This document shows positions 1 through 19,956 of a stretch of DNA of 26,852 nt, piece after piece. The stretch comes from a virus (Duplodnaviria; Heunggongvirae; Uroviricota; Caudoviricetes). A program made the position numbers and the translations under genes. The notes under the pieces are model-generated. The model had not been told where the DNA came from. It saw nothing but the letters and a program-made list of their open reading frames with translations, and did not search any database. The stretch's first letter is position 1; each line of letters starts with the position of its first letter. The stretch lies in IMG/VR virus record IMGVR_UViG_2778261537_000020, positions 1 through 26,852 of that record. One strand, given 5' to 3'.

Positions 1-186
1 TCAGGCTTCCAGCAACGATCTTTCTTCCTCCGTTGCGATTTCCAGATCTACAGCATCCTGCAGTGGCGCAATATACTCACTGAATTCCTGGATGTAGAAC
101 TGTGTGGTGACGGTCTTCCAGCTATTCGGCTCCTGCTGTATTGAAGCATACCAGGCTATTTCAATATCGCTATGCTGCGGCAGCAT
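1..186 (-). pseudogene. tfaX: Tail fibre assembly protein fragment (tfaX-like); C-terminal part matches the Tfa at 2698..3279 but ends in a premature stop at window position 1-3
   Basis: 61-aa ORF containing ...[25 protein letters not shown], closely matching ...[29 protein letters not shown]... of the full Tfa; nt 1-82 align with 2773-2855; TGG to TGA relative to the intact copy; unrelated N-terminus. Confidence 0.5.
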
Positions 187-242
187 TTAACCCCTTGTAA
201 TTCATTGCCATAATTGATTTAATTCACAAATAAAACTATAAC

Positions 243-910
243 ATGGTGAAATTAATGAAAAAAAACACAGATGATGGGGCTAAAATTTACACACCACTTA
301 CCCTAAAGCTTTATGACTGGTGGGTTTTGGGAGTATCAAATCGGCTTGCATGGGGATGTCCTACAAAGGAACACCTTCTTCCACACTTTCTGGAACATTT
401 AGGTAACAACCATCTGGATATTGGTGTTGGAACTGGGTTTTACCTTACTCACGTACCTGAGAGTAGTCTGATATCTTTAATGGATTTGAACGAAGCTAGC
501 CTGAACGCGGCATCTACAAGGGCTGGGGAATCAAAAATTAAACATAAAATTAACCATGATGTTTTTGAACCTTATCCCGCGGCGTTACATGGTCAATTTG
601 ATTCCATTTCCATGTTTTACCTTCTTCACTGCCTGCCTGGAAATATATCTACAAAAAGCTGTGTAATACGCAATGCGGGCAGGCCTTAACTGACGATGGA
701 ACTCTATACGGAGCCACAATTCTTGGCGATGGAATTGTGCACAATAGCTTCGGTCAAAAACTGATGCGCATTTACAATCAGAAAGGCATCTTTTCAAACA
801 CAAAAGATTCCGAAGAAGGCTTAACACATATACTCTCAGAGCATTTCGAGAATGTTAAAACCAAGGTTCAAGGTACTGTAGTAATGTTTTCCGCTTCAGG
901 GAAAAAATAG
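243..910 (+). pseudogene. ybcY: SAM-dependent methyltransferase (ybcY-like), frameshifted near nt 650-690
   Basis: ORF 243..689 carries a DIGVGTGFY glycine-rich SAM-binding motif; the +1 frame continues plausibly (...TDDGTLYGATILGDGIVHNSFGQKLMRIYNQKGIF...SASGKK*) to a stop at 908-910. Confidence 0.55.
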
Positions 911-1275
911 CATCCAACCGCAGCACGTTCTTGCATAAGGCGTGTCTGCGGTTTTTCAACTATTCAGATACATCACTCCCATCACATTCATTCCTCCGCA
1001 TCATAGGCATATAGGCTATATCACCTTGATATTTTTCTTCTTCAGATAAAAACTGTTATCTATGTATACTTTTAAACCCAATCCGTGTAGAGTCTCTGCA
1101 TAAGATAGTTTGCAGTTGACACTTCAGCTTGCGCCATAAACCGCCTGATTTTTGCCGCCACCTGTTAGCATTCCTGTATACCTGAAACGACAATGTTTAT
1201 CTACGAACTTTAAGAACACCCAGGATAAAAATTGTCAACTATATCATATATAACACATTACTAATTCGAGGCTAT

Positions 1276-1389
1276 ATGAACAGCATACTGATAATCACTT
1301 CGCTCCTTATCATATTCAGCATTTTTAGTCATGCTCTAATAAAATTAGGGATTGGCATATCCAATAACCCAGACAAAACCGATGTATAA
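1276..1389 (+). CDS. Small hydrophobic 37-aa ORF ([37 protein letters not shown]), possible small membrane protein
   Basis: GAGG Shine-Dalgarno 5 nt upstream of the ATG; predicted single transmembrane helix; sits in an AT-rich island; not in the supplied ORF track because it is under 60 aa. Confidence 0.25.
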
Positions 1390-1457
1390 GTCAACATATC
1401 CTGAATCAGACATACAATATCGCAATGAAAATCAATAATATTTTAAGGAATATCTTC

Positions 1458-1691
1458 ATGAAATCAAAAGACACCCTAAAGTGGTTCCCTGCGCAGCTTC
1501 CTGAAGTAAGAATTATCCTAGGGGATGCTGTAGTGGAAGTAGCAAAACAGGGAAGACCTATCAATACCAGAACATTGCTTGATTACATTGAAGGAAACAT
1601 AAAGAAAAAGTCATGGCTGGATAACAAAGAATTATTACAAACAGCGATATCAGTTCTTAAAGACAACAAAAATTTAAATGGTAAAATGTAA
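1458..1691 (+). CDS. Hypothetical protein (77 aa from Met-12 with AAGGA RBS; 88 aa if started at 1425)
   Basis: ORF 1425..1691 in the track; AT-rich codon usage; no family recognised. Confidence 0.35.
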   Translation: MKSKDTLKWFPAQLPEVRIILGDAVVEVAKQGRPINTRTLLDYIEGNIKKKSWLDNKELLQTAISVLKDNKNLNGKM

Positions 1692-1920
1692 TATAATAAA
1701 CTTACTTTCTTATCATTTTTCCACTTTAACAACATTTTGCTCCACTTTTCCACGACCAAACAACTTGAAATCTGGTTAAAATAACACGCAACACTATTCT
1801 TCTTCCTTGAGTCCGCCCGGAACTCGAAAAACAAACCGAGTTAAGGCCATTTTTCACAAAATCGATTTTGGGTCTCACCAAAATTACGGGGTTGCATACG
1901 CATTCGTTTATTTTCGAACG

Positions 1921-1940
1921 TGTACATACAAATATGTACA
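1921..1940. promoter_or_regulatory. Perfect 8-bp inverted repeat TGTACATA-caaa-TATGTACA about 70 bp upstream of the serine recombinase; candidate recombinase binding/crossover site or operator
   Basis: Palindrome read directly; an additional ATATGTACA half-site lies at 1976-1984. Confidence 0.35.
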
Positions 1941-2009
1941 AAAATAATCAAAATTATTTTCTGAGATGCATTATGATATGTACACCAATTTCGTATAGAA
2001 GATCTCACT

Positions 2010-2600
2010 ATGTCTCGAATTTATGCTTACTGTCGGGTATCAACTCTGGAAAAGACAACCAAAAATCAACGTCGGGAAATCGAAAGTGCAGGTTTTAACA
2101 TCAAATCTCAGCAAATAATTGAAGAACAAATTAGCGGCTCAGCAGCAACCAGTGAGCGTCCTGGTTTTAACCAGTTGCTTGATCGACTGAAAAGAGGTGA
2201 TGCATTGATTGTCACAAAACTGGATCGCCTCGGTTGTAATCCAATGGATATCAGTAAAACGGTGGAACAACTGACCAAAGCAGGTATCAAAGTGCATTGC
2301 TTAGCATTGGGGGGCGTTGACCTGACCAGTCCACCTGGAAAAATGATGATGCAAGTAATTTCAGCAGTCGCTGAATTTGAGCGAGACCTTTTACTTGAGC
2401 GTACTCATTCAGGGATATTAAGAGCACGGGGCGCAGGAAAGCGATTTGGTCGCCCACCTGTGTTAAATGATGAACAAATACAGAGGGTACTAGAGCAAAT
2501 TAAGTCAGGTATAAATATAAGTGACATTGCCCAAGAATTCAAAACCTCGCGGCAAACCATTTTAAGAGCTAAAGCAAAAAATCAGACACCTGATATATAA
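2010..2600 (+). CDS. Small serine recombinase (resolvase/invertase family) with C-terminal HTH
   Basis: 196 aa; N-terminal YAYCRVST (catalytic Ser), resolvase-like core (...[10 protein letters not shown]...), C-terminal ...[40 protein letters not shown]; occupies the pin-like position next to tfa but is not obviously Pin/Gin-like. Confidence 0.8.
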
Positions 2601-2697
2601 AAATAATCTCGGTGTGAGATTCCTTACGTTTTCCAAGCCCCCCTTCCTAGCCTTAAATGGAAAGATACTTCTAATTATAGAATTTATATATCTTACC

Positions 2698-3279
2698 CTA
2701 CGGTAGGGCTGGCCATTCAATATCCGGTGCAGTTGATGTATCAACACGGTTCAGCAACACCCGATACTTTTTCCAGGCTTCCAGCAACAAGGTTTCTTTC
2801 TCCGTTGCGATCTCCAGATCCACAGCATCCTGAAGCGGCGCTATATGCTCACTGGCTACCTGCATCAGGCTGTTTTTTGTTTCTTCCGCCTCCCGGATCC
2901 GGAACAGTTTTTCTGCTTCCGTATCCTTCACCCAGGCTGTGCCGTTCCACTTCTGAAACTCCCCTTCCGGGGATAACCAGGTGACATTTTCCGGTAATGA
3001 GCCGAGTTCAGAAATAAATAACGCGTCGCCGGAAGCCACGTCATAAACCGTTTTACCCCGATGATCTTCAACGAGATGCCACGATGACTCATCACTGTTG
3101 AAAACAGCCACGAAACCAGCCGGAATATCTGGCGGTGCAATATCGGTACTGTTTGCTGGCAGACCTGTATGAGGCGGAATGTATGCGTCACCTTCACCAA
3201 TAAATTCATTAGTTCCGGCCAGCAGATTATAAATTGTTATGGTCCGTGGTTGTTCACTCATTCTGAAATCCATGTTCAC
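2698..3279 (-). CDS. tfa: Tail fibre assembly protein Tfa (lambda Tfa-like)
   Basis: 193 aa; ...[52 protein letters not shown]... matches remembered lambda Tfa almost residue for residue. Confidence 0.85.
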
Positions 3280-3281
3280 CT

Positions 3282-4184
3282 CTACTTAATATCAGAGACA
3301 GAATATTGTTTATTGAGCGTATGGGTGTGAGCACCAATAACGATGCTACTTCCGTGGCTATGTGCGCCAGAGATGACATTACCTACAGGATTTTCTGGAT
3401 TAATCCGGTGTATATGCGAACCAGGGCGAAACCGGTTATTAGCCTGATGTTGTATCAGTACATCATCAGCCTGATGTTCAGGGTTAATACAGACCTGCCC
3501 GGAACGTGAGCAATACGTCCGATAATCGCCGCATCCAATATATTTAGTATCCGCATAACGGCAAACAGAATTACCCGGACAGTATGCATATGTGCCAAAT
3601 ACTGCCGACTGGCGGGATTGTGCGTATTCCCAGTTAATTGATTCTGTTTTTTTATTAAAGTTATCCCATGCCTGCTTCATCTGCCGGGCAACGCTTTCAA
3701 ACGGCACCTGACCACATCCGGCTCCCATTGCAGGGAATACCACCGTCTTTATTTTCCTGTCTGTCGTTGCGTTTTTATTGTGCTGAAAGATAGCAAGTAG
3801 AGCTGCCCAAGTTGCGTTATATACAGCGTCTGTTCCGTCAATTGTCAACGGAACACGCATTGTTGGCGCATGTACCAGCCAGGGGTGATAATTATGCCCC
3901 GTTTCAATAACAAATGCAGAACCTACAGGCTGCTCGCCGAGATATTCACGAAGAATATGATTCTGAACGCGGGCCTGTAGCTGAGAACCGAAGAATGTGG
4001 TAATGGCGGCATCAACACCGCCATCCATCAGGCCGAAACTATTTGCCGCACTTACCATGCAGTCAAATTCTCTGATTGTTTCAAATGGCTTTCCGACAAT
4101 ATTCACATTATCTGCATTTGCAAATACCCGCTTAAATGCTTCAGCCATTTCGGTTACTGGTGCAGAAAGAATGAGCGTAATCAT
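3282..4184 (-). CDS. Macro-domain protein (ADP-ribose-binding/processing fold) with Cys-rich region and His-x-His tail-fibre-tip-like C-terminus
   Basis: 300 aa; macro signature ...[19 protein letters not shown]...; C-terminus ...[20 protein letters not shown] resembles HxH repeats of Stf tips; start overlaps the stf stop (ATGA) and its stop lies 3 nt before tfa. Confidence 0.6.
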
Positions 4185-5683
4185 GCAAGCCTCACAATAT
4201 AGTTAAATGCGATGTTTTTGACGGTGTTTTCCGCGTTACCAGCAGCGTTAACGGTGATGGTGTGTCCATGTGAGCCAATCGCAACCGAGTGCGTATGAGC
4301 ACCAATACCGACAGTATGTGCGTGAGCACCTGCAGATGCAGCTGTGCCGCTGACACTATGAGTGTGCGCTCCTGCAGCACTTGTATTCACACTGGCCGCA
4401 GACACTACCTTATGTACTGACCCATTTTGTGACCACTGGCTGACTGCTGATGCGCCTGTGACACTATGAGTATGGTTTCCGGCACTTGCGGCTGTACCGC
4501 TCACACTGTGCGTATGCGCCCCGATGTTATTCGTGGATTTAGTGCCGTAATCAAACGACGATGTGGTTTTCGTCCCCAAATCCGTACTGGATGCGCTGGC
4601 GCTGTGGGTGTGCGATTTAATGCCGTCCTGTTCCTGAGACAATACGGCCCGACCACTGGCAGGTTTGCCCTTAATCGTCCAGCCACGCATATCAGGGATC
4701 ACGCCTGACGGATAAGCGGCTGCAAGTTTCGGGTATGCAGATTTGTCAAAAGTCTGCCCCTGCATCAGGACATAACCAGACGGAACGGTATCTGATGGCC
4801 ACGGGATTGGTGCACCGACTGGATAAAACTCTGCAGGAGGATGAGCCGAGGTGTAAAGCTGCGCCCACGGCGACCAGTTTGCGTCGGTCGTATCCCGTCG
4901 TGAACGAATAAATGCCGGAGCATGAGCACCGCTTGTACCACTCCAGCCGATGAGTAACTCACCTTCGCCAACGGCTGTCATCCCTTTCAGGTGAATGATA
5001 TTTCCATACGTTGTTGGATATCCGTTGTTATACACCTCGTATAACTCAAGACCTGCTGCCCCCTGCGTATTGTCTGTCAGCGCGGCTACCCGACCTTTTG
5101 AAGCCAGATTAACTGATGATACTGCTGTTCCACCTGACGGTAGCGCCCCGATCTCTGATGCCGTTGGCTTATTTCTGGAGTTATAGTCCCTTCGCCAGCC
5201 AGGTGAATAATCTGTTCCGTGATTAATATAGGTAAACTGGGCGTTGGTTGTTCCGCCACCGCTGGATGTGGTCGGAGTGGTAATGCGGATCGTCATCGCT
5301 GACTTTATCCCCATTACTTCAATGACAGCTCCGGCGAGATGAATATTACCGCAGCCAGTATCAGTAATGATTTTATTATTGCCATAAGACCAGGAACCCT
5401 TGCACATCCAGTATGGATGGTTAAATGCTCCCTGAGAATCCAGCCACTCGATAAACTGTGCAGTCGTCCAGTTTCCTGTTGTTGTGCTTACTGACCCACC
5501 GAAGGCACGGCAGGCACCAATATTTTTCGTAAAGGTGTCTTTGCCAGGGATATCCGCACCGTTCTGATCTTTCTGCAGACGTTTCTCAGCATTGTCATTG
5601 GCTGCTTTTACTGCCTTTGGCGTTGCCGCCAGCGTTTCAGACGTGCTGTTGGTCGCGCTGCTCACCCTTGCGGGCCATGTCAT
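4181..5683 (-). CDS. stf: Side tail fibre protein Stf, distal portion only (5'-truncated by deletion/fusion to H)
   Basis: 500 aa; begins at the internal conserved ...[19 protein letters not shown]... motif and ends ...[31 protein letters not shown] as in lambda Stf; the N-terminal half of Stf is absent. Confidence 0.8.
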
Positions 5684-8162
5684 ACACTGCCTTCATCATC
5701 TGTGGACCTGGCAGACCATTCGTACCGTCGTTCTGAATCACCACGTGATTGTTCTGATTAAAATTAATGCCTTCAGCCCGCCGCATCTGCGCCGGACTTC
5801 CGGCACCGCCCACATAACCACCTTCCGCATAGCCCCGCATCAGGCGGTACAGGTTGCCGACACCAATCCGGCTGGTTGCCTCCTTCGTGAAGACAAATTC
5901 GCCACGGTGAACAATCCCCGCTGGCTCATATTTGCCGCCGGTTCCCGTAAATCCCCCGGTCGCAAAACGGAATTTCGCCGCAGCGGCCTGAATGGCTGTA
6001 CCGCCTGACGCGGATGCTCCACCACTGGCAGCACCGCCAATGGCGCTGCCGATACTCCCGACAATCCCCACCATTGCCTGCTTAAGCAGAATTTCTGTCA
6101 TCATGGACAGCACGGAACGGGTGAAGCTGCGCCAGTTCTGCTCACTGCCGGTCAGCATCGCCGCCATATTCTGTGCAATACCATCAAAGGTCTGCGTGGC
6201 TGCACTTTTAACCTGCGACATACTGTCCGTGGCGCTCTCTTCCCACTCACTCCAGCCGGACTTCAGGCCTGCCATCCAGCTCCCGCGAAGCTGGTCTTCA
6301 GCCGCCCAGGTCTTTTTCTGCTCTGACATGACGTTATTCAGCGCCAGCGGATTATCGCCATACTGTTCCTTCAGGCGCTGTTCCGTGGCTTCCCGTTCTG
6401 CCTGCCGGTCAGTCAGCCCCCGGCTTTTCGCATCAATGGCGGCCCGTTTTGCCCGTTGCTGCTGTGCGAATTTATCCGCCTGCTGCGCCAGCGCGTTCAG
6501 GCGCTCCTGATACGTAACCTTGTCGCCAAGTGCAGCCAGCTGGCGTTTGTACTCCAGCGTCTCATCTTTATGCGCCAGCAGGGATTTCTCCTGTGCAGAC
6601 AGCTGGCGACGTTGCGCCGCCTCCTCCAGTACCGCGAACTGACTCTCCGCCTTCCACAAATCCCGGCGCTGCTGGCTGATTTTCTCATTCGCTCCGGCAT
6701 GCTTCTCCAGCGTCCGGAGTTCTGCCTGAAGCGTCAGCAGGGCAGCATGAGCACTGTCTTCCTGACGATCGCCCGCAGACACCTTCACGCCGGACTGTTT
6801 CGGCTTTTTCAGCGTCGCTTCATAATCCTTTTTCGCCGCCGCCATCAGCGTGTTGTAATCCGCCTGCAGGATTTTCCCGTCTTTCAGTGCCTTGTTCAGT
6901 TCTTCCTGACGGGCGGTATATTTCTCCAGCGGCGTCTGCAGCCGTTCGTAAGCCTTCTGCGCCTCTTCGGTATATTTCAGCCGTGACGCTTCGGTATCGC
7001 TCTGCTGCTGCGCATTTTTGTCCTGTTGAGTCTGCTGCTCAGCCTTCTTTCGGGCGGCTTCAAGCGCAAGACGGGCCTTTTCACGATCATCCCAGTAACG
7101 CGCCCGCGCTTCATCGTTAACAAAATAATCATCCTTGCGCAGATTCCAGATGTCGTCTGCTTTCTTAAACGCAGCCTCTGCCTTAATCAGCATCTCCTGC
7201 GCGGTATCAGGACGACCAATATCCAGCACCGCATCCCACATGGATTTGAATGCCCGCGCAGTCCTGTCTGCCCAGGTCTCCAGCGTGCCCATGTTCTCTT
7301 TCAGGCGGCGGGTCTGGTCATCAAACCCTTTCGTTGCGGCCTCGTTCGCCGCCTGCAATGCCCCGGCTTCATCGCCGGAACGCTGCAACTGAGCAACATA
7401 CGCAATCTGCTCCGCCGTCACGTTATGGAACTGGCGTGCCATCGCCGTCAGCCCCGACGTCGGGTCTGTGGTCAGCTTCCCGAAGGCTTCAGCGACCTTG
7501 TCCACCTCCACGCCGGATGCAGAGGAGAAACGCGCCACACTCTGGCTGATGGACGCAATCTGAGCCTCACCGCTTACCCCCGCCTTAACCAGTGCGCTGA
7601 GTGACTCGCTGGTCTGGTTAAACGTCAGCCCTGCCGCCTGCCCGGCTCTGGACAGGACCAGCATACGATCTGCCGTCAGTCCCGCCTGATTGCCGGAAAG
7701 GACCAGCGTTTTGTTGAAATCGGACAGGGTTGAGTTGCCCTGATACCAGGCATACGCCAGCGCACCGGTCGCCACCGCCAGCGAGGTGGCCCCCACCATC
7801 GGCAGGGTGATCGCACCGGCAAGCCCCCTGAACATGGGGATCATCCCGCCGAAGGAGTCCTTCACCTGCCCCCCCTGTTGCAGCAGGATCAGCCACGGAC
7901 TTTGCCCGCCTGCAAGCTGCGTGGCCACGTCGGTGAACTGTGCAGGCAGCATACGCATGGCGGCTTTATACTGCCCGACGGAAATCCCCGCTTTCTGTGC
8001 AGCCAGCGCCTGTCGGCTCAGCGACTGTTCAACGACTGCCGCTGTTTTTTTCGCATCACTTTCCGTACCGGAAAAATGACGCCTGACTCTGGCCATCTGC
8101 TCGTCAAATCTGGCCGCATCCAGACTCAAATCAACGACCAGATCGCCTACCGGTTCAGCCAT
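5637..8162 (-). CDS. H: Tail tape measure protein H (lambda gpH-like), diverging over the last ~8 residues
   Basis: 841 aa; [30 protein letters not shown]... essentially collinear with remembered lambda H up to ...[10 protein letters not shown], then EQRDQQHV*. Confidence 0.9.
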
Positions 8163-9045
8163 ACCGGACTCCTCCTGCGATCCCTTCTGATACTGTCATC
8201 AGCATTACGTCATCCTCCGTCATGTCCGCCACATCCGGGGAAGCGGGGACATCCGGCGTCCATTTGAGGCCAAACGGCGTCTCTTTGTCGCCAAATTTAA
8301 GATACTGCTCCTCCCCGCAGTGCGGGCAGGCAACATGAAAACGCATAAAATGCGGGGATTCACTGGCTGCACGCTCAATCTGGCAGGTGCCTCTCACTTT
8401 GGGCGTGGAGCCACGGATGGACTTTGGCCAGACCGAGCCTTCAATACGTTTGTCGCCAAGGAACGTCGGAGAGCCTTCCTGTTCAATATCCTCATCAAAG
8501 GCAGCAAGTTCATCATAACCCGCCACATCCACCGACTTTTCACGGTAGTTTTTTGCCGCTTTACCGCCCAGGCACCAGAAGCCACGACCATTGGAAAAAC
8601 GCTTCATAGTGAGCGTGTTATCCCGGTGCTTTTTGCCATACCACGGAGCCAGCGCCAGCAGCGACGGAATATCGCGGATGGTCGGCTCAACGTGGGTTTT
8701 CATAAAGTTCTCGGCATCACCATCCGTCGGCAACCAGATAAGGGTGTTGCGCTGCTTATGCTCTATAAAGTAGGCATAAACACCCAGCAGCATTTTGGAA
8801 TAACCGACACGGGCAGACTTCACCACATTCACCTCACGGATGTAGTCGCTGCCCATCGCATTCATGATGGCCCGCTGAAAGGGCAGTGTTTCCCAGCGCC
8901 CTTCCTGGTATGCGGATTCTTTTGGGAGATAGTAATTGGCATCCGCCCATTCAACGGCGGTCTGTGGCTCCGGCCTGAACAGTGAGCGAAGCCCGGCGCG
9001 GACAAAATGCCGCAGCCTGTTAACCTGACTGTTCGATATATTCAC
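8155..9045 (-). pseudogene. A: Terminase large subunit A, N-terminal ~265 residues then out-of-frame tail (deletion remnant)
   Basis: MNISNSQVNRLRHFVRAGLRSLFRPEPQTAVEWADANYYLPKE... matches lambda gpA up to ...FGLKWTPD, then unrelated 31 aa and a stop 4 nt before the H start; lambda gpA is ~641 aa. Confidence 0.85.
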
Positions 9046-9565
9046 TCAGCAACCCCGGTATCAGTTCATCCAGCGCGGCTGCTTTGTTCATGGCTTTGAT
9101 GATATCCCGTTTCAGGAAATCAACATGTCGGTTTTCCAGTTCCGGAAAACGCCGCTGCACCGACAGGGGGATCCCGTCGAGAATACTGGCAATTTCACCT
9201 GCGATCCGCGACAGCACGAAAGTACAGAATGCGGTTTCCACCACTTCAGCGGAGTCTCTGGCATTTTTCAGCTCCTGTGCGTCGGCCTGCGCACGCGTAA
9301 GTCGATGGCGTTCGTACTCAATAGTCCCTGGCTGGAGATCTGTCTCGCTGGCCTGCCGCAGTTCTTCAACTTCCCGGCGCAGCTTTTCGTTCTCAATTTC
9401 AGCATCCCTTTCGGCATACCATTTTATGACGGCGGCAGAGTCATAAAGCACCTCATTACCCTTGCCACCGCCTCGCAGAACGGGCATTCCCTGTTCCTGC
9501 CAGTTCTGAATGGTACGGATACTCGCACCGAAAATGTCAGCCAGCTGCTTTTTGTTGACTTCCAT
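9020..9565 (-). CDS. nu1: Terminase small subunit Nu1
   Basis: 181 aa, MEVNKKQLADIFGASIRTIQNWQEQGMPVLRGGGKGNEVLYDSAAVIKWY... matches lambda Nu1; 26-nt overlap with A as in lambda. Confidence 0.9.
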   Translation of the reverse strand: MEVNKKQLADIFGASIRTIQNWQEQGMPVLRGGGKGNEVLYDSAAVIKWYAERDAEIENEKLRREVEELRQASETDLQPGTIEYERHRLTRAQADAQELKNARDSAEVVETAFCTFVLSRIAGEIASILDGIPLSVQRRFPELENRHVDFLKRDIIKAMNKAAALDELIPGLLSEYIEQSG

Positions 9566-9741
9566 TGTTCATTCCACGGACAAAAACAGAGAAAGGAAAC
9601 GACAGAGGCCAAAAAGCTCGCTTTCAGCACCTGTCGTTTCCTTTCTTTTCAGAGGGTATTTTAAATAAAAACATTAAGTTATGACGAAGAAGAACGGAAA
9701 CGCCTTAAACCGGAAAATTTTCATAAATAGCGAAAACCCGC

Positions 9742-9753
9742 GAGGTCGCCGCC
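9742..9753. other. cos: cosN cohesive-end sequence (reverse complement of lambda GGGCGGCGACCT), with cosB-like region between it and the Nu1 start
   Basis: Window 9731-9770 gaaaacccgcgaggtcgccgccccgtaacctgtcggatcg is the reverse complement of the remembered lambda right-end/left-end junction ...CGATCCGACAGGTTACG|GGGCGGCGACCTCGCGGGTTTTC. Confidence 0.7.
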
Positions 9754-9954
9754 CCGTAACCTGTCGGATCGCCGGAAAGGACCCGCAAAAATGATAATAA
9801 TTATCATCTACATGTCACAACGTGCATCTACGCCATCAAACCACGTCAAATAATCAATTATGACGCAGGTATCGTATTAATTGATCTGCATCAACTTAAC
9901 GTAAAAACAACTTCAGACAATACAAATCAGCGACACTGAATACGGGGCAACCTC

Positions 9955-10149
9955 ATGTCAACGAAGAACAGAACCCGCAGAACAACAACCCGCAACATCC
10001 GCTTTCCTAACCAAATGATTGAACAAATTAACATCGCTCTTGAGCAAAAAGGGTCTGGGAATTTCTCAGCCTGGGTCATTGAAGCCTGCCGTCGGAGACT
10101 AACGTCAGAAAAGAGAGCATATACATCAATCCAAAGTGATGATGGATGA
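9955..10149 (+). CDS. ylcI: Small phage right-end ORF, YlcI-like (DUF3950-type)
   Basis: 64-aa ORF MSTKNRTRRTTTRNIRFPNQMIEQINIALEQKGSGNFSAWVIEACRRRL...; lies in sequence matching the lambda right arm adjacent to cos. Confidence 0.5.
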   Translation: MSTKNRTRRTTTRNIRFPNQMIEQINIALEQKGSGNFSAWVIEACRRRLTSEKRAYTSIQSDDG

Positions 10150-10508
10150 ACATCCCGGTTTCTTCCACCATCGCACCGGAAAAGCGACTATGAGGGTAAC
10201 CCTGCGTCTGTCAGCACAGTAAAACCCGGTGTGCATCGTTTTTGATTATTCCCGCACACTCACGCAGAAGGAATTCCCCGTCGGGCTACGGTCATGGTTA
10301 ATGCGGGAATACGGCGACGATACAGCGCAGCTAAAAGGGTAATGGACAGATAGAGCGGTTTATTTCATTCCACAGGATTCTGAGTGCCCCCCTCCTCCAA
10401 TAGGCTGAGCATCCACCTATATAGTTTTAATTTTCATCAATCCATTTAACTATCGTTTAATTGTTGTCACATAGGATTCTGCCGTTTTTAACAATGCAGG
10501 ATAATAAG

Positions 10509-10802
10509 ATGAAAAAAATGTTGTTTTCTGCCGCTCTGGCAATGCTTATTACAGGATGTGCTCAACAGACGTTTACTGTTGGAAACAAACCGACAGCAGT
10601 AACACCAAAGGAAACCATCACCCATCATTTCTTCGTTTCGGGAATTGGACAGGAGAAAACTGTTGATGCAGCCAAAATTTGTGGCGGCGCAGAAAATGTT
10701 GTTAAAACAGAAACCCAGCAAACATTCGTAAATGGATTTCTCGGTTTTATTACTTTAGGCATTTATACTCCGCTGGAAGCGCGTGTGTATTGCTCACAAT
10801 AA
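10509..10802 (+). CDS. bor: Bor outer-membrane lipoprotein (serum-resistance moron)
   Basis: MKKMLFSAALAMLITGC lipobox; 97 aa from Met-17 of the track ORF with AGGA RBS; matches lambda Bor. Confidence 0.85.
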   Translation: MKKMLFSAALAMLITGCAQQTFTVGNKPTAVTPKETITHHFFVSGIGQEKTVDAAKICGGAENVVKTETQQTFVNGFLGFITLGIYTPLEARVYCSQ

Positions 10803-10833
10803 TTGCATGAGTTGCCCATCGATATGGGCAGCT

Positions 10834-11295
10834 CTATCTGCACTGCTCATTAATATACTTCTGGGTTCCTTCCAGTTGTTTTTGCATAGTGATCAGCCTC
10901 TCTCTGAGGGTGAAATAATCCCGTTCAGCGGTGTCTGCCAGTCGGGGGGAGGCTGCATTATCCACGCCGGAGGCGGTGGTGGCTTCACGCACTGACTGAC
11001 AGACTGCTTTGATGTGCAACCGACGACGACCAGCGGCAACATCATCACGCAGAGCATCATTTTCAGCTTTCGCATCAGCTAACTCCTTCGTGTATTTTGC
11101 ATCGAGCGCAGCAACATCACGCTGACGCATCTGCATGTCAGTAATTGCCGCGTTCGCCAGCTTCAGTTCTCTGGCATTTTTGTCGCGCTGGGCTTTGTAG
11201 GTAATGGCGTTATCACGGTAATGATTAACAGCCCATGACAGGCAGACGATGATGCAGATAACCAGAGCGGAGATAATCGCGGTTACTCTGTTCAT
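10834..11295 (-). CDS. Rz: Rz i-spanin
   Basis: ...[59 protein letters not shown]... matches lambda Rz; likely start at Met-5 of the track ORF. Confidence 0.9.
10893..11075 (-). CDS. Rz1: Rz1 o-spanin lipoprotein, embedded in the +1 frame of Rz
   Basis: 60 aa [60 protein letters not shown]; lipobox plus proline-rich region, matches lambda Rz1. Confidence 0.85.
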
Positions 11296-11789
11296 TGCTG
11301 ACCCCACAAACAGATTTCACGCTCAATCTCACGACGAGTCATGAGACCTTTCCATTGCTTACCGCCAGCATATGTCCAGCGACGTAGCTGATCACATGCG
11401 CCTTTGATATCGCCCTGGTTTATTTTGCGAAGAAGCGTCGATGTTCTGAAATTGCCAGCACCCACGTTGTAAACGAATGAGTAAAGAGCGCCGCGCATTG
11501 TTTCCGGTATATCGACTTTGATGTACGGGTTAATTTGTCTGGCGACCGTGGCAAGGTCTTTATTCAGGAGGGCTTTGCATTCTGCTTTGGTATACGTTTT
11601 ACCGAGCATGATGTCTTTTCCTGTATGCCCGTGACATACAGTCCATACACCAACAATATCTTTGTATGGTATGTAGCTGACACCTTCCAGACCATCGTTA
11701 CCACTTGGGCCAGTGATTAACACTGATGCTATAGCAATTGCTCCGCCACCAATAGCAGCAGCAACGGCTTTTCGTAATGATGGAGGCAT
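11292..11789 (-). CDS. R: SAR endolysin (phage 21 R21-type lysozyme)
   Basis: 165 aa; N-terminal Gly/Ala-rich signal-anchor-release segment [20 protein letters not shown] followed by a T4-lysozyme-like domain. Confidence 0.85.
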
Positions 11790-12004
11790 TATTCACCTCT
11801 CGCAGCCTTGCGCTTATCTTCTTTAATCTTGAAATAAAGGTTTGTCAGGTACGTCAGCAGGCCAAATACCAGGCTACCCAGCACACCTATTGCTGCCCAC
11901 TGTGAGGGCGTGACTTTATCGAGCAGCTGTAAAAACCAGTAACCGGCACTACCTGCTGAGGTGCCATAGGCGACACCCGTTGTTAACTTATCCATGGATT
12001 TCAT
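11789..12004 (-). CDS. S: Pinholin (phage 21 S21-type), dual-start motif MKSMDK
   Basis: [71 protein letters not shown]; stop overlaps the R start (TAATG); track ORF carries an extra 15-aa upstream extension. Confidence 0.85.
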
Positions 12005-12130
12005 AACCCCACCTCGCAGACAAAGCGGGTGTAAATTGAGGGAATACAACGTATCGCAAAAAAGCAGAAACGTAACAGACTCGGAGTCAGTGAATAACTC
12101 AGGTATTGGGTTATCAGCTAATATCGAGAC

Positions 12131-12165
12131 TCAAAAAATGGAAAAACCCGCTCGACGGCGGGTTT
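12131..12165 (-). terminator. Intrinsic-terminator-like hairpin on the minus strand about 100 bp upstream of S (candidate tR'-like element)
   Basis: aaacccgc-tcgacg-gcgggttt stem-loop at 12144-12165, followed on the minus strand by a U-rich tract (ttccattttttga). Confidence 0.35.
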
Positions 12166-12593
12166 AAGCTGTGTGACGAAGTAACCACTCTTAACAGCAT
12201 AACCAATTTTTTACGTACGTAAACCACAAAATGATATTTGCGAGAATGCTACCGAGTATTGAAAACACCACTACAAATACATAAGCAAATCTCAACAAAT
12301 AACCAACAAATAATTTCCAGTGTTATTTTTAGCCGATTTAAATTGAACCTTCAAATTACAGAGCACTTATAAATAACAGCCGTTAATATAAATTGGCTAA
12401 TAGATTTATTTTTATTCAGCCAAGATCCATGAATAGGATTCGATAGAAAAAAGTTCAGATAAAAATAGAGATCTACTTCACAAATCAAACGAGAAACCAA
12501 AACTTACATCTTGAAATAATCACATTGATTAGATGAATATTTATCGCGCAGTGACATCATTTTTTAATAATAGTTCAAAAAAAAGGGCTCACG

Positions 12594-13676
12594 ATGAAAA
12601 AATTAACAGTGGCAATTTCTGCTGTAGCTGCATCAGTACTGATGGCGATGTCTGCTCAGGCAGCTGAAATTTATAATAAAGACAGTAACAAGCTGGATCT
12701 ATATGGGAAAGTTAATGCCAAGCACTACTTCTCCTCTAATGATGCAGATGATGGTGATACTACTTATGCCCGTCTTGGCTTCAAAGGTGAAACCCAAATC
12801 AACGATCAACTGACTGGTTTCGGTCAGTGGGAATATGAATTCAAAGGCAACCGCGCTGAATCTCAAGGCTCCTCCAAAGACAAAACCCGTCTTGCATTTG
12901 CAGGCCTGAAATTCGGGGACTACGGCTCAATCGATTACGGCCGTAACTACGGTGTAGCATATGACATCGGTGCGTGGACTGACGTTCTGCCAGAATTCGG
13001 TGGCGATACCTGGACCCAAACAGATGTGTTCATGACTGGTCGCACCACTGGTGTTGCAACTTATCGTAACAACGACTTCTTTGGTCTGGTTGATGGTCTG
13101 AACTTTGCTGCTCAGTATCAGGGTAAAAATGACCGCACTGACGTAACTGAAGCTAATGGTGATGGTTTCGGTTTCTCCACTACTTATGAGTATGAAGGAT
13201 TCGGTGTAGGTGCAACCTATGCTAAATCTGACCGCACTAATAATCAGGTTATCTACGGTAACAACAGCCTGAATGCATCTGGTCAAAATGCTGAAGTATG
13301 GGCAGCTGGTCTGAAATATGATGCGAACAACATCTATCTGGCTACCACCTATTCTGAAACCCAGAACATGACTGTTTTTGGTAATAACCATATTGCCAAC
13401 AAAGCACAAAACTTCGAAGTAGTTGCACAATATCAGTTCGACTTCGGTCTGCGTCCGTCCGTTGCTTACCTGCAATCTAAAGGAAAAGACTTGGGTGCGT
13501 GGGGTGATCAGGACCTGGTTGAATATATTGATGTAGGTGCAACCTATTACTTCAACAAAAATATGTCCACTTTTGTTGATTACAAAATCAACCTGATTGA
13601 TAAGAGCGATTTCACGAAAGCATCTGGCGTTGCTACCGATGATATCGTTGCTGTAGGTATGGTTTACCAGTTCTAA
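12594..13676 (+). CDS. nmpC: Outer-membrane general porin, NmpC/Lc (OmpC/OmpF family), apparently intact
   Basis: 360 aa with signal peptide [30 protein letters not shown]... and C-terminal ...VAVGMVYQF porin signature. Confidence 0.9.
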
Positions 13677-13691
13677 TTTGATTACTAAAAG

Positions 13692-13725
13692 ATATGTTGC
13701 GGGAGGCTTTGCCTCCCCAACATAT
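13692..13725. terminator. Long imperfect palindrome/hairpin immediately downstream of the porin gene
   Basis: atatgttgcgggaggc-ttt-gcctccccaacatat read directly. Confidence 0.3.
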
Positions 13726-13813
13726 AAGTGGCTCCCTCAAGCCACTTCCTTTAGGAGCACAACCTTGCTTCTAACTATATAAACCTTCTGTTATATATTA
13801 CCCTTTATTTTTG

Positions 13814-13847
13814 GGGGCGTTGCAACGCCCCATTTTTAATAATTTTT
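13814..13847 (+). terminator. Rho-independent terminator (perfect 18-bp palindrome followed by a T-run) for the porin transcript
   Basis: ggggcgttgcaacgcccc followed by atttttaataattttt. Confidence 0.45.
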
Positions 13848-13864
13848 AGTAAACAATTGGCATA

Positions 13865-14263
13865 TTAATTAGAGTTATTAACAACGATATCCATCTCTAA
13901 CCGGATATCTAATGCCATTAACATCCCTTCAATTATGCCCTCAGCCTTCTGTAACCTTTTCCCGATATAACCATCAGAGCAGCAATGCTTACCTGCCAGT
14001 GACATGAATGTCATACCGACTACATAATAATCTACTAATAAATCGTGCAAATCGCTGTTGTTCTTTTTCAGACGGGCCATGCACCCGCAAATAATCATCG
14101 CGTCATCGTCACAACATTGCGGGCGAGATTTTACTTTTGAAGTAATTAATCCCTTAAAACCGGCGGCAATGGACGACCAGGTCACATCTTCATGATTATT
14201 AGCCGCCCACGCTCCCCAACGCTCAAGAACCATCTGAATATCACGCATCAACTTACTCCACAA
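13865..14263 (-). CDS. Q: Late-gene antiterminator Q (DLP12 QuuD-like)
   Basis: 132-aa ORF (...[24 protein letters not shown]...[16 protein letters not shown]...), Cys-rich zinc-binding region; sits between rusA/ylcG and the lysis cassette. Confidence 0.8.
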
Positions 14264-14333
14264 AAATCAGACCAGCACGCCAATTACAAGCAAAAATCAA
14301 CAAAACAGTATTAGTTGATTGTTATCTCTGACT

Positions 14334-14471
14334 TCATACTCCTGCTCCTGTCAGGGTTTTGGCGTAATTCTTCAGTATTCGGTAATCGGTCAAAACAGAA
14401 CCGGGGAAACGATATAAGCGCAGATGCCCCCAGCGGTGGCGAAGAAGTTCTGCCATATAAAACTCAAACAT
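14334..14471 (-). CDS. ylcG: Small protein YlcG-like (46 aa)
   Basis: Hand translation [45 protein letters not shown]; ATG overlaps the rusA stop. Confidence 0.4.
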   Translation of the reverse strand: MFEFYMAELLRHRWGHLRLYRFPGSVLTDYRILKNYAKTLTGAGV

Positions 14472-14833
14472 CATTCATTCCCCATTTCGGTGATGGTCAG
14501 TTCCAGCCTCCCACCTTTGGTAACAGGCATCTTCACAACGCGGTAATCAACGACCTGAGCATCATCCAGCCAGAAACCTGCTTTGGTGAGTGCGTCAAAA
14601 GCGGCTTTTTGCAGATTATCCAGGTCACGGCGACGGCGATCCGGCATGTGGCACTCAATGCGGATTTTCACAGGCATAGCCAGGCCGATATCCAGCATTG
14701 CGTTTTTAATGATTCGGGCGACGTTATCGCGGTATGCCTGCCCCTCTGCACTGACGTGCGTGCGCCCGCGATTATGGCGGTAATAGCGATTATTGCTCGG
14801 AGGCCAGGGTAATGTGATACTGTAGGTATTCAC
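14471..14833 (-). CDS. rusA: Holliday junction resolvase RusA
   Basis: 120 aa [97 protein letters not shown]... Confidence 0.9.
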
Positions 14834-15120
14834 GCCTTAATAACCCCCTCTTTCAGCCAGATAACCTGTGTTCTCGCCATACCTTCCAGCGCGCATTCTT
14901 TTGCATATGCAGCATCGACAAAATGTGTGCGGCGGTCGATTTCGTCGTGGCAGGCAGAACATGCAATGGTGGCAATCAGGTCTGGCGGTTTGATACCGGT
15001 ACCGCACAATCCAGCCAGCCGGATATGTGCCAGTACAGACGTTTCAGAATTGCCATTACATACGCCAGGGATTCTTACCTGGCATTCCCGACCACGCGCT
15101 GCTTTTCTCAAATCAGCCAT
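14830..15120 (-). CDS. ybcO: YbcO-like nin-region protein (Cys-rich, putative nuclease, DUF1364-type)
   Basis: [42 protein letters not shown]...; 96 aa from the internal Met of the track ORF. Confidence 0.6.
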
Positions 15121-15283
15121 GATTCCTCCTTGCTGCCAGTCGCAACCATTTTTTATCAACCAGGCTAGCGGTATATCCGAGCAGTGTTGGTATTTCGGAT
15201 GGCTTCAGCTCAGGCTTACGCTTACGACGATTTGATACTCTGTAGATGTGTCCGTTCATGACACGAATAAGCGGTGTAGCCAT
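15113..15283 (-). CDS. ninE: NinE
   Basis: Hand translation [56 protein letters not shown]; overlaps the ybcN stop and the ybcO start; not in the ORF track (under 60 aa). Confidence 0.6.
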   Translation of the reverse strand: MATPLIRVMNGHIYRVSNRRKRKPELKPSEIPTLLGYTASLVDKKWLRLAARRNHG

Positions 15284-15738
15284 TACGCCTCCTGCTTGTC
15301 GCGGAGCAGCTGGAACTCGCAGCTCTGCGGAATAGTCAGGTGGCAGCCAATATTCACCGCCCAGGCTTCAACCTTACACAGGAAGACATACATCTCTCCG
15401 GTATCAAGATCGGAGGTATGGCGTAACGACTGGATAGTGGTGATATCACCGGTTACGACATCAACCAGGTCTTTGGTTTCATAACCGAGATATGTGTGTT
15501 TGAGAGCATCTTTTACCCAAGCTGGAGTGGCGAACGTTTTACCCCTGCTGATGAGGTATTCACTGATTTCGCTGTACCACATGTGGCTGAGTGCATTCTG
15601 GGAAAGACTGCGTTTCTCACGCCACGGTTTAAGCACCATGCGAAAGCATTTGCCCTCCTCCAGATAAGGCTGGATCTGCCGACCGATAGCGGTGAAGTTG
15701 CCGCGATGTAATTTGATGCCGTCTTGTGAGAGGTTCAC
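15283..15738 (-). CDS. ybcN: YbcN-like nin-region protein
   Basis: 151-aa [64 protein letters not shown]... Confidence 0.6.
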
Positions 15739-15952
15739 GCTTCACCTCCGCAGAGGTCAAACGCTAGATGCAAAGAATTGCAGGTGCATTTCTGCATCTG
15801 TGAAGGGAGAAGAGAGTTTGGATTGTATGTGCGCATAAACGTCCCCGTTTAGCGCAGAAGTCACCGGAGTTGTTCAGGCTCCGGTGACATAATTATGCCG
15901 TGTTGATTTCCCAAAATCAAAATCGATAGAATTGCTCCTTCTTAAAACACTT

Positions 15953-16750
15953 TTACTCTCTGGAAGCTTTTCTTATCTCTCTTGGTGTTATATTAAAACG
16001 ATTATGAAATCTTTCAGTAAAACGAGAAGGACACTTATAACCATTTTCTCTGGCAATCTCGCTTATAGGTTTTACCGTCGTTTGTATAGCAGACAACGCA
16101 TTATTTAACCTCACATCGTCCAGTATACTTTGGAAACTTACCCCCTCGCTTGCTAGACGGCGATGTAATGTAGAAACAGAAATGTAGAGATATCGAGCAA
16201 CCTTGTTTGCTGTCCATTTTGTGCCGGGTTCGGATAGCAGCAGGTTATAACAACGACTTATCAATGATTGTTTACTATATGATAAAAGTAAATGATTAAC
16301 ATGATTCACTCCTAACGAAAGTAGAACGCCCATTGCTAAGTGCTCCTGAATTTTAGTTGAGAAGCCTCGGGAAACAGATGTTTTTAGTTGCTCCCAACAA
16401 TATATTAACTCAGGATTCTGAGGTAAAAAGAAACTTGTTTTGTTACGTATTTGATCAGTTACCGTATAAAGTTTTTGGAAACTCTCAATTAAATCAATGG
16501 GTAAGTAAAGCATTTCTGCAAGATAAAGCCCTGCTTCAGGATAATTCTCAATATAAAATTCATAACCACAAGGAAATAATATTATTTGATTATTATCAAC
16601 AGTTAAAGTATGCGTCTCCCAATTGATAACTTTCTTTCCCTGACGGATACGACACAAAGCTGGCATAAGAGGCTTAACCCTATGAATCTCATGATGTTTA
16701 TGCATCCGTATTTCTTCGATCTTTAAGTTAGTCTTACCTCTTGCCAGCAT
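15953..16750 (-). CDS. ybcM: AraC/XylS-family transcriptional regulator (YbcM-like)
   Basis: 265 aa; C-terminal AraC-type HTH (...[45 protein letters not shown]...[32 protein letters not shown]); AT-rich gene. Confidence 0.8.
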
Positions 16751-16759
16751 ACTCTCACC

Positions 16760-17311
16760 CTACTTTATCTCATAAACTGGTGTTATCTCAGCGGTTGCGA
16801 TTTTATTAGCATTAAGCATATAACCAACTAACGCTCCGCTGGAGTTAGAATCTACAGGAATCTTTTCAGTTTTTAGAGCCCATACTTTAAACTGGTAATG
16901 ATGTGGTTTATCTCCTTTAGGAGGACATGCGCCACCAAACCCAGCATAGCCAAAATCATTTCGGCCTTGAACAGCACCAGTCGGCAGTTTTGTTCCATCA
17001 CGTCTCCCTGCATCAACGGGCAAATATGTTACTGTTGCTGGAATATTAACAACAGTCCAATGCCACCAACCACTGCCTGTAGGTGCATCTGGATCATATA
17101 CAGTTACGGCAAAGCTTTTGGTACCTTCAGGAACACCAGACCAGGTTAATGAGGGCGATGTATTACCACCTTCACACCCAAATCCAGAAAAGACATGAGA
17201 CGTTGTAAGTTGCTCTCCTGTTTTTATTTCATTACTAGTGACCTGAAATGCTGCAGCCTGCGCAGAAAATGTTATGAATGCCAATACAGTTGAAACGATA
17301 AGTGTTTTCAT
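16760..17311 (-). CDS. ybcL: Secreted PEBP/RKIP-family protein (YbcL-like)
   Basis: 183 aa with signal peptide MKTLIVSTVLAFITFSAQA; ...FAVTVYDPDAPTGSGWWHWTVVNIP... and ...GFGGACPPKGDKPHHYQFKVWAL... PEBP motifs. Confidence 0.75.
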   Translation of the reverse strand: MKTLIVSTVLAFITFSAQAAAFQVTSNEIKTGEQLTTSHVFSGFGCEGGNTSPSLTWSGVPEGTKSFAVTVYDPDAPTGSGWWHWTVVNIPATVTYLPVDAGRRDGTKLPTGAVQGRNDFGYAGFGGACPPKGDKPHHYQFKVWALKTEKIPVDSNSSGALVGYMLNANKIATAEITPVYEIK

Positions 17312-17775
17312 AAAAACCTCTTTGTTATGACCTATCGTTATTTTATTTGATATTCCTTTATCTCATTATGCATAAAGGCGCAATGTTCATGCAAAAGCAA
17401 TCACAATTGTACCCCCAACCCAATTATTTGCCACAATATACACAAAGCACATTGATACTATCTAAAAACTCTGCTTTATTATTAGTAATACCTACGAAAG
17501 TCGGTGTTATTTTTTAACCTACCATTCAAAATACGTGACATACACCATTTTGCTCATAATAATTTGTCACGTATTTTCAGTATTTGAATCTGCGACCAAG
17601 AGTTCTCACCTAACAAATGATTAAGATTGTATAGCTCATTTACTACCCCAATACAGCCGTACAAAACTCGCTTGTGGGAGCAAACAAAGTAATTACCCAT
17701 TAAGTTTCGTCAAAGATAATTAATTCTGTCTTGCACTTTATCACCATAGCATAACTTAAAATCCGAGATCATTAT

Positions 17776-19302: not shown

Positions 19303-19556
19303 GGTGACACCTGCTAACGTATGCTTTTATAAACCTTAGTGGTGGGATATAATTTTTGTTTAATTTTTATTTAAAAAGACAATTAAGGTCACATTATCTT
19401 GAATATACAACAATAATGGTATTGCATTTTTCTTACGCGATAATCTTGAAATCACAAAAGAATACATAAAAAATAAAGACATTAACAAAAAGCATAAAAC
19501 GAGGCTCATATAAATATAAGAGCCTCCATATTTTAGTCGTTTAGAAACAAATTATT

Positions 19557-19889: not shown

Positions 19890-19956
19890 AGCATATTCTT
19901 TCCTGTTCAAACTGGAGAGAATTGTACTACAGTTTGAACTCAACTCACCTGTTTCA

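Follow-up and report, generated by a model that had tools for sequence, protein, structure and literature searches.

The present study concerns a DNA stretch of 26,852 nucleotides (positions 1 to 26,852 of the IMG/VR virus record IMGVR_UViG_2778261537_000020, Caudoviricetes), hereafter called the window, and an open reading frame (ORF) of 300 aa that lies in it between the side-tail-fibre gene stf and the tail fibre assembly chaperone gene tfa. We found that this ORF is a coding gene under purifying selection, that its product has a macro-domain fold with a conserved pocket, and that the gene holds one fixed position in the fibre-tip cassette of unrelated phages and is dispensable for the Stf and Tfa proteins. 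From these comparisons, we believe that it may encode a late, fibre-coupled cytoplasmic ADP-ribose hydrolase or sponge that serves as counter-defence and hitch-hikes in the host-range cassette, and we give this explanation a probability of about 40%. The features concerned are listed here with their coordinates in the window.

3282..4184, minus strand: macrodomain accessory gene, identical to RefSeq WP_000631346.1 'macro domain-containing protein'
3600..4184, minus strand: macro core, aa 1-195, Ymx7/Macro_2-like with an N-terminal beta-alpha extension (alignments, AlphaFold2, Foldseek)
3465..3599, minus strand: Cys-rich module, aa 196-240, with C202-x5-C208 ... C225-x6-C232, then H237-Q238
3285..3464, minus strand: variable His-x-His (HxH) tail, aa 241-300, with SHIH, AHSH and AHTH, homologous to the Stf HxH repeats
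4181..4184, minus strand: ATGA overlap of the stf stop and the macro start, read from the sequence; translational coupling
3274..3281, minus strand: spacer AGGTGAAC from the macro stop to the tfa ATG, 8 nt, holding the Shine-Dalgarno sequence for tfa
2698..3273, minus strand: tfa, lambda-type tail fibre assembly chaperone (Pfam Caudo_TAP, PF02413, E 3.7e-44; RefSeq start)
4181..5659, minus strand: 3' remnant of stf, lambda Stf-type C-terminal half (Pfam Phage_fiber_2, Collar, Phage_fiber)

Junctions, coding status and fold

A first-pass annotation of the window had described a 300-aa ORF between stf and tfa without giving its strand. The ORF is real, and the ORF list places it at 3282-4184 on the minus strand; among the matches listed, its DNA was 100% identical in 12 E. 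coli genomes. At the stf/macro junction the minus strand reads ...GTGAGGCTTGCATGATTACG. The stf gene ends in ...ATT GTG AGG CTT GCA TGA and the macro ATG begins one base earlier (GC-ATG-A), which gives the ATGA overlap of 4 nt that had been claimed and places the macro frame at -1 relative to stf. The macro stop is the TAG at 3282-3284. The same annotation had put this stop 3 nt before tfa, which was only roughly right: a GTG follows after 2 nt (3279), but homology and RefSeq annotation support the ATG at 3273, 8 nt past the stop, as the tfa start. The N-terminus of Tfa is then MDFRMSEQ, compared with MAFRMSEQ in the lambda-type Tfa of phage SPF_0923. In the Pfam search, the macro ORF had no Caudo_TAP (PF02413) match and the downstream gene had it. 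The C-terminus of the window Stf is common to all macro-bearing fibres.

The -1 frame and the 4-nt overlap would also fit a Stf-macro fusion made by frameshift or readthrough at the ATGA, in which the macro protein would form a C-terminal extension of some fibre chains. We find this hardly credible, as no slippery heptamer was seen at the stf/macro junction (...CTTGCATGA), the gene's own ATG or GTG start is conserved in 79 of the 79 assessable IMG/VR loci, and an ATGA overlap is an ordinary termination-reinitiation arrangement.

The ratio of nonsynonymous to synonymous substitution rates (dN/dS) was 0.08-0.13 in the macro core, approximately 0.15 in the Cys module and 0.23-0.96 in the HxH tail. 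The values for the core and the Cys module indicate that the ORF is coding and not a chance frame. Purifying selection, with a dN/dS of about 0.1, spans the E. coli, Salmonella, Erwinia and Enterobacter lineages.

The macro-domain signature had been read from the protein letters, and the profile search and structure prediction proposed for the N-terminal part both found the macro fold. Pfam Macro (PF01661) matched residues 44-169 over profile positions 1-118 of 118, with an E value of 5.9e-19 and a score of 68.6 bits (cut-off 22). In an AlphaFold2 monomer model built from 39 homologues, residues 1-195 formed a three-layer alpha/beta/alpha macro fold with a predicted local distance difference test score (pLDDT) of about 80-90. 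Foldseek gave a probability of 1.0 to solved macrodomains, including Ymx7, TTHA0132 and MacroD2, and also matched the core to viral macro proteins. The top Foldseek match was yeast Ymx7/YMR087W (1njr), with an E value of 1e-10 over 209 columns that include the N-terminal beta-alpha extension, and a profile of the wider subfamily matched 1njr over its whole length (positions 2-176, E 1e-12). The score of the window protein against Pfam Macro_2 (PF14519) was 23.4 bits, under the gathering threshold of 27, and against the NCBIfam YmdB-type equivalogs it was at most 52 bits, with cut-offs of 200-315.

Family alignments showed D41, N48, G55-G56-V57-D58 and G154-A155-G156 without exception in 39 family members. 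The N-x6-G-G-[VLI]-D loop is present as N48-SFGLMD-G55-G56-V57-D58, likewise invariant in the family, and in place of the MacroD loop-2 motif G-[VIA]-[YF]-G there is G154-A-G-C157-G. Cys157 is conserved in at least 90% of the family, and the residue varies in distant relatives. The pocket positions were assigned by alignment to TTHA0132 and macroH2A together with general knowledge of macrodomain motifs, and on this basis we take D41, the N48 loop and G154-A155-G156 to be the ADP-ribose pocket. ADP-ribose binding by the macro core is a well-supported prediction; hydrolysis is less well supported, because the MacroD aromatic residue is replaced by Cys157.

Among characterised proteins, Ymx7, an ADP-ribose-1''-monophosphatase, resembles the window protein in fold, in the N-terminal extension and in the ..NS[FY]G.(L/M).GG.D.. 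loop. Unlike the window protein, to which it is about 19% identical, Ymx7 is a metabolic enzyme of the cell that has neither a Cys/His tail nor any setting in a phage or near a fibre. The MacroD-type proteins (E. coli YmdB, human MacroD1/2, Oceanobacillus OiMacroD and TTHA0132) share the fold, the N-x6-G-G-[VLI]-D motif and the aspartate that contacts adenine (D41 in the window protein), but they keep the loop-2 aromatic residue where the window protein has Cys157.

A HMMER search against 1.8 billion representatives returned 1297 clusters at E<1e-10. The relatives are mostly stand-alone macro proteins of about 200 aa that match residues 1-195, and some eukaryotic ones have WD40, RRM or Hpt domains, or a rhodanese together with a dual-specificity phosphatase domain, as fusion partners, which we presume to be intracellular. 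The nearest relative without a tail, at 63% identity, has ParB-N/methyltransferase genes on one side and a phage terminase gene on the other; this setting, the one locus (L007) at which the context of tail-less relatives was read, is an accessory region and not a fibre locus. Giant viruses and jumbo phages carry the same macro subfamily, and the 'tail protein' labels on these relatives were probably copied from the enterobacterial family. A separate database protein of 463 aa (P0018) joins ParM/StbA-like actin domains to residues of the macro protein (96% identity, with 80% of the query covered); a rearranged plasmid or a chimeric assembly is its probable origin.

A fixed and optional slot in the fibre cassette

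The macro ORF belongs to PHROG 2613 ('unknown function') with an E value of 3e-147. We counted 1702 database relatives, from E. coli, E. albertii, E. fergusonii, Salmonella, Citrobacter, Enterobacter and Erwinia; those from Salmonella form very large clusters. RefSeq names the family 'macro domain-containing protein' or 'phage tail protein', the copy in Gifsy-1 is annotated as STM2588.1n ('contains pfam01661'), and the gene is also annotated in the isolated phages SEN4/SEN5 and Chuche. The rarity that the first-pass annotation implied for a macro gene at a tail-fibre locus was therefore not borne out: databases already contain both the gene family and its macro domain, and the bare observation is not new. 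Phage Macro genes amid virion-morphogenesis genes have also been noted earlier (PMC9503650). In the literature, we found no paper on the function of this protein or the biology of its family, on the strict three-gene architecture across at least six backbone kinds, on the link to one fibre-tip type or the optional nature of the gene, or on its composite, partly Stf-borrowed tail and its Ymx7-like (not DarG-like) class.

In every backbone inspected, the order was fibre gene, macro gene and tfa, with the 4-nt overlap at the fibre stop. This slot was found in lambdoid prophages (the window, E. coli strain C5 and Gifsy-1), in a linear SopA-bearing 47.6-kb plasmid-prophage, on an IncY 96.7-kb plasmid that we take to be P1-like, on an IncFIB 110-kb phage-plasmid, in P2-like phages, in a Mu-like Enterobacter prophage and in baseplate-J myoviruses of Erwinia and Citrobacter. 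The backbones thus include at least six kinds, namely lambdoid, N15-like, P1-like, SSU5-like, P2-like and Mu-like.

From IMG/VR, 80 loci were kept, all of the close enterobacterial family, and 79 of them could be assessed. An [A/G]TGA overlapped the fibre stop in 79/79, the upstream fibre ended in N[IT][AV][FYL]NYIVRLA in 79/79, and a hidden Markov model (HMM) match to Tfa followed directly downstream of the macro gene in 79/79. The same insertion, for which a survey of other stf-tfa loci had been proposed, is thus found in all of these macro-bearing loci as well as in the lambdoid prophages, and the claimed translational coupling within the late fibre operon agrees with an overlap at every one. 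The [A/G]TGA junction is also present in the Chuche, SEN5, Gifsy-1, Erwinia, Citrobacter and Enterobacter loci. At six of the 79 (L074, L076, L077, L079, L083 and L084), GTGA replaces ATGA, so coupling is kept with a GTG start. On the other side of the gene, the macro-tfa junction in Salmonella, Erwinia and other lineages is an overlap of 4 or 11 nt and not a spacer. Because the 79 loci share the fibre ending and the downstream Tfa, the macro gene goes with a single type of fibre tip, namely the C-terminal domain of lambda Stf paired with a lambda-type Tfa; and because the junction is identical everywhere, a single insertion event seems to lie behind the spread across unrelated backbones.

The cassette also exists without the macro gene. 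In SPF_0923 and several PhiR phages, stf and tfa are 96-99% identical to those of the window and meet at a direct junction, GCATAATGGCA. Compared with this junction, about 911 nt have been cleanly inserted in the macro form; one base is replaced, and the insert supplies a Shine-Dalgarno sequence of its own for tfa. A 501-nt probe across the direct stf-tfa junction was at least 80% covered in at least 3310 of 5426 complete E. coli genomes, and the macro gene was present in 128 of the 5426 (about 2%). Since Stf and Tfa that are 98% identical occur in isolated phages without it, the macro gene is dispensable for Stf and Tfa.

Such a distribution could belong to a selfish or neutral hitch-hiker, or to a housekeeping enzyme for ADP-ribose-1''-monophosphate (Appr-1''-p) or O-acetyl-ADP-ribose with no link to fibre or immunity. 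The protein would then detoxify metabolites derived from nicotinamide adenine dinucleotide (NAD) or support RNA repair, and its gene would persist mainly because recombination that took it out would break the stf-tfa pair. This would agree with the metabolic Appr-1''-pase Ymx7 as the closest characterised relative, with the cassette linkage, one junction everywhere and a single origin, and with the rarity of the gene in E. coli genomes, among which the direct junction is frequent. Nevertheless, dN/dS stays near 0.1 across lineages, and each of the two junctions has either kept its coupling or had it rebuilt; the strong purifying selection and the coupling both speak for a true advantage to the phage. 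Clean junctions without the macro gene show in addition that it can be lost, yet it persists. We consider this explanation unlikely.

The annotation had also raised a moron that took over fibre sequence by recombination. The borrowing part of this idea is supported by the HxH homology described below. We do not regard the gene as a classical moron, because it is always translationally coupled and no promoter or terminator rises above chance: a crude consensus scan gave 6 promoter-like sites with 6.9 expected and 2 terminator-like sites with 3.4 expected.

The Cys/His tail and a physical role with the fibre

The Cys-rich stretch behind the macro core had been pointed out from the sequence, and family alignments showed that C202, C225 and C232 are invariant and that C208 is at least 90% conserved, which suggests a putative Cys4 metal site. 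The module is confined to the macro-gene family plus one remnant in Salmonella phage SEN34 and has no counterpart in Stf, Pfam or other PHROGs; the Cys/His tail searched alone gave no Pfam or PHROG identity beyond its own family. The SEN34 remnant (L006, 5001-5183) is 61% identical to aa 184-244, has no macro domain, and adjoins an acyltransferase gene downstream of the tail fibre and chaperone genes.

The likeness of the HxH repeats to Stf was also confirmed. The last 40-50 residues of the tail align with the HxH repeat region of the Stf C-terminus (hhalign probability 93.9%, E 1.6e-7, 39 columns); the repeats are short and of low complexity, so the match shows homology or borrowing of one segment only. 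At the DNA level, a 35-nt repeat in the tail (3322-3356) is 74% identical to stf at 4290-4324. The number of G-x-H-x-H repeats ranges from 0 to 4 across the family. These comparisons suggest that the tail derives in part from the Stf HxH repeats. Co-variation of the tail repeats with those of the cognate Stf was considered and not adopted, being suggestive for E. coli versus Salmonella and unclear in Erwinia, Citrobacter and Enterobacter.

The matching HxH region is that of the metal-binding repeats in lambda Stf and T4 gp37. Those fibres, however, have a shaft, a Collar domain and a terminal segment, none of which is found in the window tail, which evolves fast and can be lost. The domains Phage_fiber_2, Collar and Phage_fiber were absent from the tail in Pfam even at E<=10, and the conserved C-terminal end of Stf was absent from all macro proteins inspected. 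In the AlphaFold2 monomer, the C-terminal 75 residues had a pLDDT below 50 and the Cys module was not modelled with confidence, so that the model says nothing about a trimeric stalk or a zinc ribbon. The Cys/His tail is probably metal-binding and oligomerising.

Several variants occupy the slot with a different tail or none. At two loci (L092 and L094, 5001-5612), a 203-aa macro protein without the Cys/His tail, 67% identical in the core, lies between the fibre gene and tfa with an ATGA overlap upstream and a TAATG overlap downstream; this form may be ancestral or secondarily shortened. The version at L090 keeps the Cys module and has no HxH. A 300-aa variant (L093, 2068-2970) ends in 100 residues of a different Cys/His-rich sequence, with the pattern CGC...CDCGCG...HNHYIYTGAHTH...HDH...HHH. 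The tail has thus been remodelled repeatedly yet stays rich in metal-ligand residues, and, as these four loci show, it is not needed for occupying the slot.

One explanation that takes the tail as its starting point is an accessory attached to the fibre. The Cys/His tail, helped by Tfa, would form a trimeric metal-bound stalk docked on or beside the Stf tip, and the virion would carry three macro domains as a surface enzyme or adhesin, by analogy with the gp38 of T2/S16 and with tailspike esterases. The gene always lies between fibre and chaperone and is coupled to both, its HxH tail is homologous to Stf repeats, its Cys module is under purifying selection, and databases call it a 'phage tail protein', although this name is likely a transitive annotation. 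However, ADP-ribose-type ligands are, as far as is known, intracellular, and it is the pocket for them that is invariant. The tail-less 203-aa and HxH-less 253-aa versions fill the same slot, the dN/dS of the tail reaches 0.96 from a minimum of 0.23, and the C-terminus could not be modelled. Moreover, the protein has no fibre C-terminal end, no Collar or Phage_fiber domain and no N-terminal attachment domain, and Stf and Tfa function without the macro gene in most phages. The gene for the T2/S16 gp38 adhesin likewise comes directly behind the fibre gene in one late operon with it, but the adhesin has no relation to the macro protein in sequence or fold, and receptor binding depends on adhesins of this type, whereas most cassettes that are otherwise identical do without the macro gene. 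Attachment to the fibre, the chief rival to the explanation that we prefer, is in our view possible and rather unlikely.

The enzyme acting on a surface glycan at the fibre tip, for example an esterase, that the first-pass annotation had listed as its first hypothesis is disfavoured on related grounds. What is invariant is the set of ADP-ribose pocket residues, the closest relatives are stand-alone macro proteins of about 200 aa or eukaryotic fusions that are apparently cytoplasmic, the tail-less 203-aa versions share the slot, and nearly identical Stf and Tfa work without the gene.

The protein might instead help the fibre to mature, either by removing an ADP-ribosyl mark from nascent fibre or as a co-chaperone acting through its Stf-like tail. 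The position between the stf and tfa genes with coupling to both, and the homology of the tail to Stf repeats, would fit this idea, but near-identical Stf/Tfa pairs assemble without the gene and tail-less variants exist. We know of no report of fibre ADP-ribosylation, though no search aimed at it was made, and we hold a maturation factor to be very improbable.

Predicted function and prophage setting

In the explanation that we prefer, the macro gene would be an accessory gene inside the lambda-Stf-type host-range cassette, which consists of the fibre C-terminal domain and the Tfa chaperone, and its protein would be synthesised late through translational coupling to the fibre gene. The Ymx7/MacroD-like product, with its intact ADP-ribose pocket, would act in the cytoplasm of the infected cell, where its target would be an ADP-ribose-derived molecule or an ADP-ribosyl modification, either bound or hydrolysed at the 1'' position. 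In this way it may counter NAD/ADP-ribose-based immunity, being expressed alongside the late structural proteins that many such systems sense, and it is not needed for fibre assembly. Wedged between fibre tip and Tfa, the gene would travel with every cassette swap. Its fixed position would be a matter of linkage, because the fibre tip and Tfa must be inherited together, and the same linkage would account for its presence in lambdoid, N15-, P1-, SSU5-, P2- and Mu-like phages. Among the hypotheses of the first-pass annotation, that of an anti-ADP-ribosylation factor seems the most plausible.

Studies have shown that AdfM (T4 Tk.4, PhiKZ gp104) is a phage macrodomain that strips DarT2 ADP-ribosylation from DNA (PMC13309987; bioRxiv 10.1101/2025.11.20.689424). 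As a stand-alone counter-defence macrodomain encoded by a phage, AdfM represents the functional class proposed here for the window protein. AdfM is DarG/TARG1-like, however, and the window protein is not. Membership in the DarG/AdfM group was rejected, with a BLASTP E value of 4.7 against gp104, an NCBIfam antitoxin_DarG score of 12.7 bits (cut-off 250) and a PADLOC match to DarG of 14.4 bits over 39 residues only. In Pseudomonas N4-like phages, side-tail-fibre and chaperone alleles govern sensitivity towards type II Thoeris, the signal of which is histidine-ADP-ribose (His-ADPR), read by a macro domain (bioRxiv 10.64898/2026.06.04.730250). The macro domain of the Thoeris II protein ThsA binds an ADP-ribose conjugate, and this conjugate would be a possible target for the window protein. 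The known sponges of nucleotide signals, Tad1, Tad2 and Acb2, are not macrodomains, unlike the window protein.

Several points weigh against a counter-defence role. Late expression is oddly timed against a defence like DarT, which is directed at early DNA replication. Since the protein is not DarG/AdfM-like, it has no proven anti-defence homologue, and Cys157 in place of the MacroD aromatic residue may mean binding rather than hydrolysis. The fixed position and the fibre-repeat-like tail could point to a physical role with the fibre, and the link to Thoeris comes from unrelated Pseudomonas N4-like phages. Independently of these points, no partner ADP-ribosyltransferase is annotated in phage SEN5, as judged from the annotation only and with no HMM test.

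A more specific form of counter-defence is an antidote linked to its trigger. The macro protein would be made with the fibre trigger from the same mRNA and would destroy or sequester the signal or reverse the mark. Host TIR or other NAD-consuming sensors would recognise the folded complex of side-tail fibre and chaperone, which is reported of type II Thoeris in Pseudomonas phages, the signal would be a 1''-substituted ADP-ribose (His-ADPR-like) or else an ADP-ribosyl mark would be reversed, and the Stf-derived Cys/His tail would bring the macro protein to the complex of fibre, chaperone and sensor. We speculated on this because the type II Thoeris paper (bioRxiv 10.64898/2026.06.04.730250) ties fibre/chaperone alleles to sensitivity, and we think it quite improbable. 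If true, it would be a macrodomain class new to anti-defence, welded genetically to the structure that triggers the alarm.

The prophage in which the window gene lies is defective. Window positions 1-5659 are collinear with E. coli strain C5 and 99.97% identical to it, after which there is a jump of 9.5 kb into the tape-measure gene. The stf of the window is accordingly the 3' half only, joined at about 5660 to the tape-measure gene by a 9.5-kb deletion which, compared with C5, took away lom, J, I, K, L and M together with the 5' half of stf and the end of the tape-measure gene. The remaining tape-measure ORF (841 aa, 5637-8162) continues out of frame through 23 nt of stf sequence to a stop at 5637. 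In C5 itself (L001, 19661-24419), J is interrupted by an IS3-family element, so the C5 prophage is also defective; its stf-macro-tfa genes are intact. Next to the tape-measure gene of the window lies only the N-terminal ATPase part of gpA (296 aa, 8155-9045), with the small terminase gene Nu1 at 9020-9565, and since the truncated gpA gene abuts the tape-measure gene, a second large deletion seems to have removed head and proximal tail genes. The window is a decayed DLP12-like prophage.

On the other side of the cassette, a gene for a Pin/Gin-type serine invertase (2010-2600, plus strand) adjoins tfa. An invertible host-range segment served by this invertase was considered and rejected: no inverted repeats that could be crossover sites were found at positions 1-3400, so there is no evident invertible segment, and the only repeat is a direct one of 92 nt, derived from tfa (2-93 versus 2774-2865, 85% identical). 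An ORF at 1-186 on the minus strand is a C-terminal tfa fragment that duplicates part of the intact tfa, like tfaX of DLP12. A class I S-adenosylmethionine-dependent methyltransferase gene (243-910, plus strand), intact with 222 aa in C5, appears split here into ORFs of 148 and 57 aa and looks like a frameshifted pseudogene, as ybcY of K-12. The region 9000-22000 resembles a DLP12-type prophage and has genes for a spanin (Rz), a lysozyme, an NmpC-like porin (12594-13676), a regulator of the AraC family, a protein of the PEBP family, a large serine recombinase (17776-19302) and a homologue of replication protein O.

The cassette of Stf tip and Tfa is widely exchanged among enterobacterial phages and is a main target for host-range engineering. 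Our results indicate that it carries an optional third gene of about 0.9 kb that is strongly selected and is predicted to code for an ADP-ribose-directed enzyme; when Stf/Tfa modules are transplanted, the macro gene may travel along. If the counter-defence role is true, the time and place of the gene's expression and its location would hint at fibre proteins as the thing sensed by NAD/ADP-ribose immunity. If instead the macrodomain is displayed on the virion, it would be a case of which we found no report in the literature. Either outcome would give PHROG 2613 a function and would correct many 'phage tail protein' annotations.

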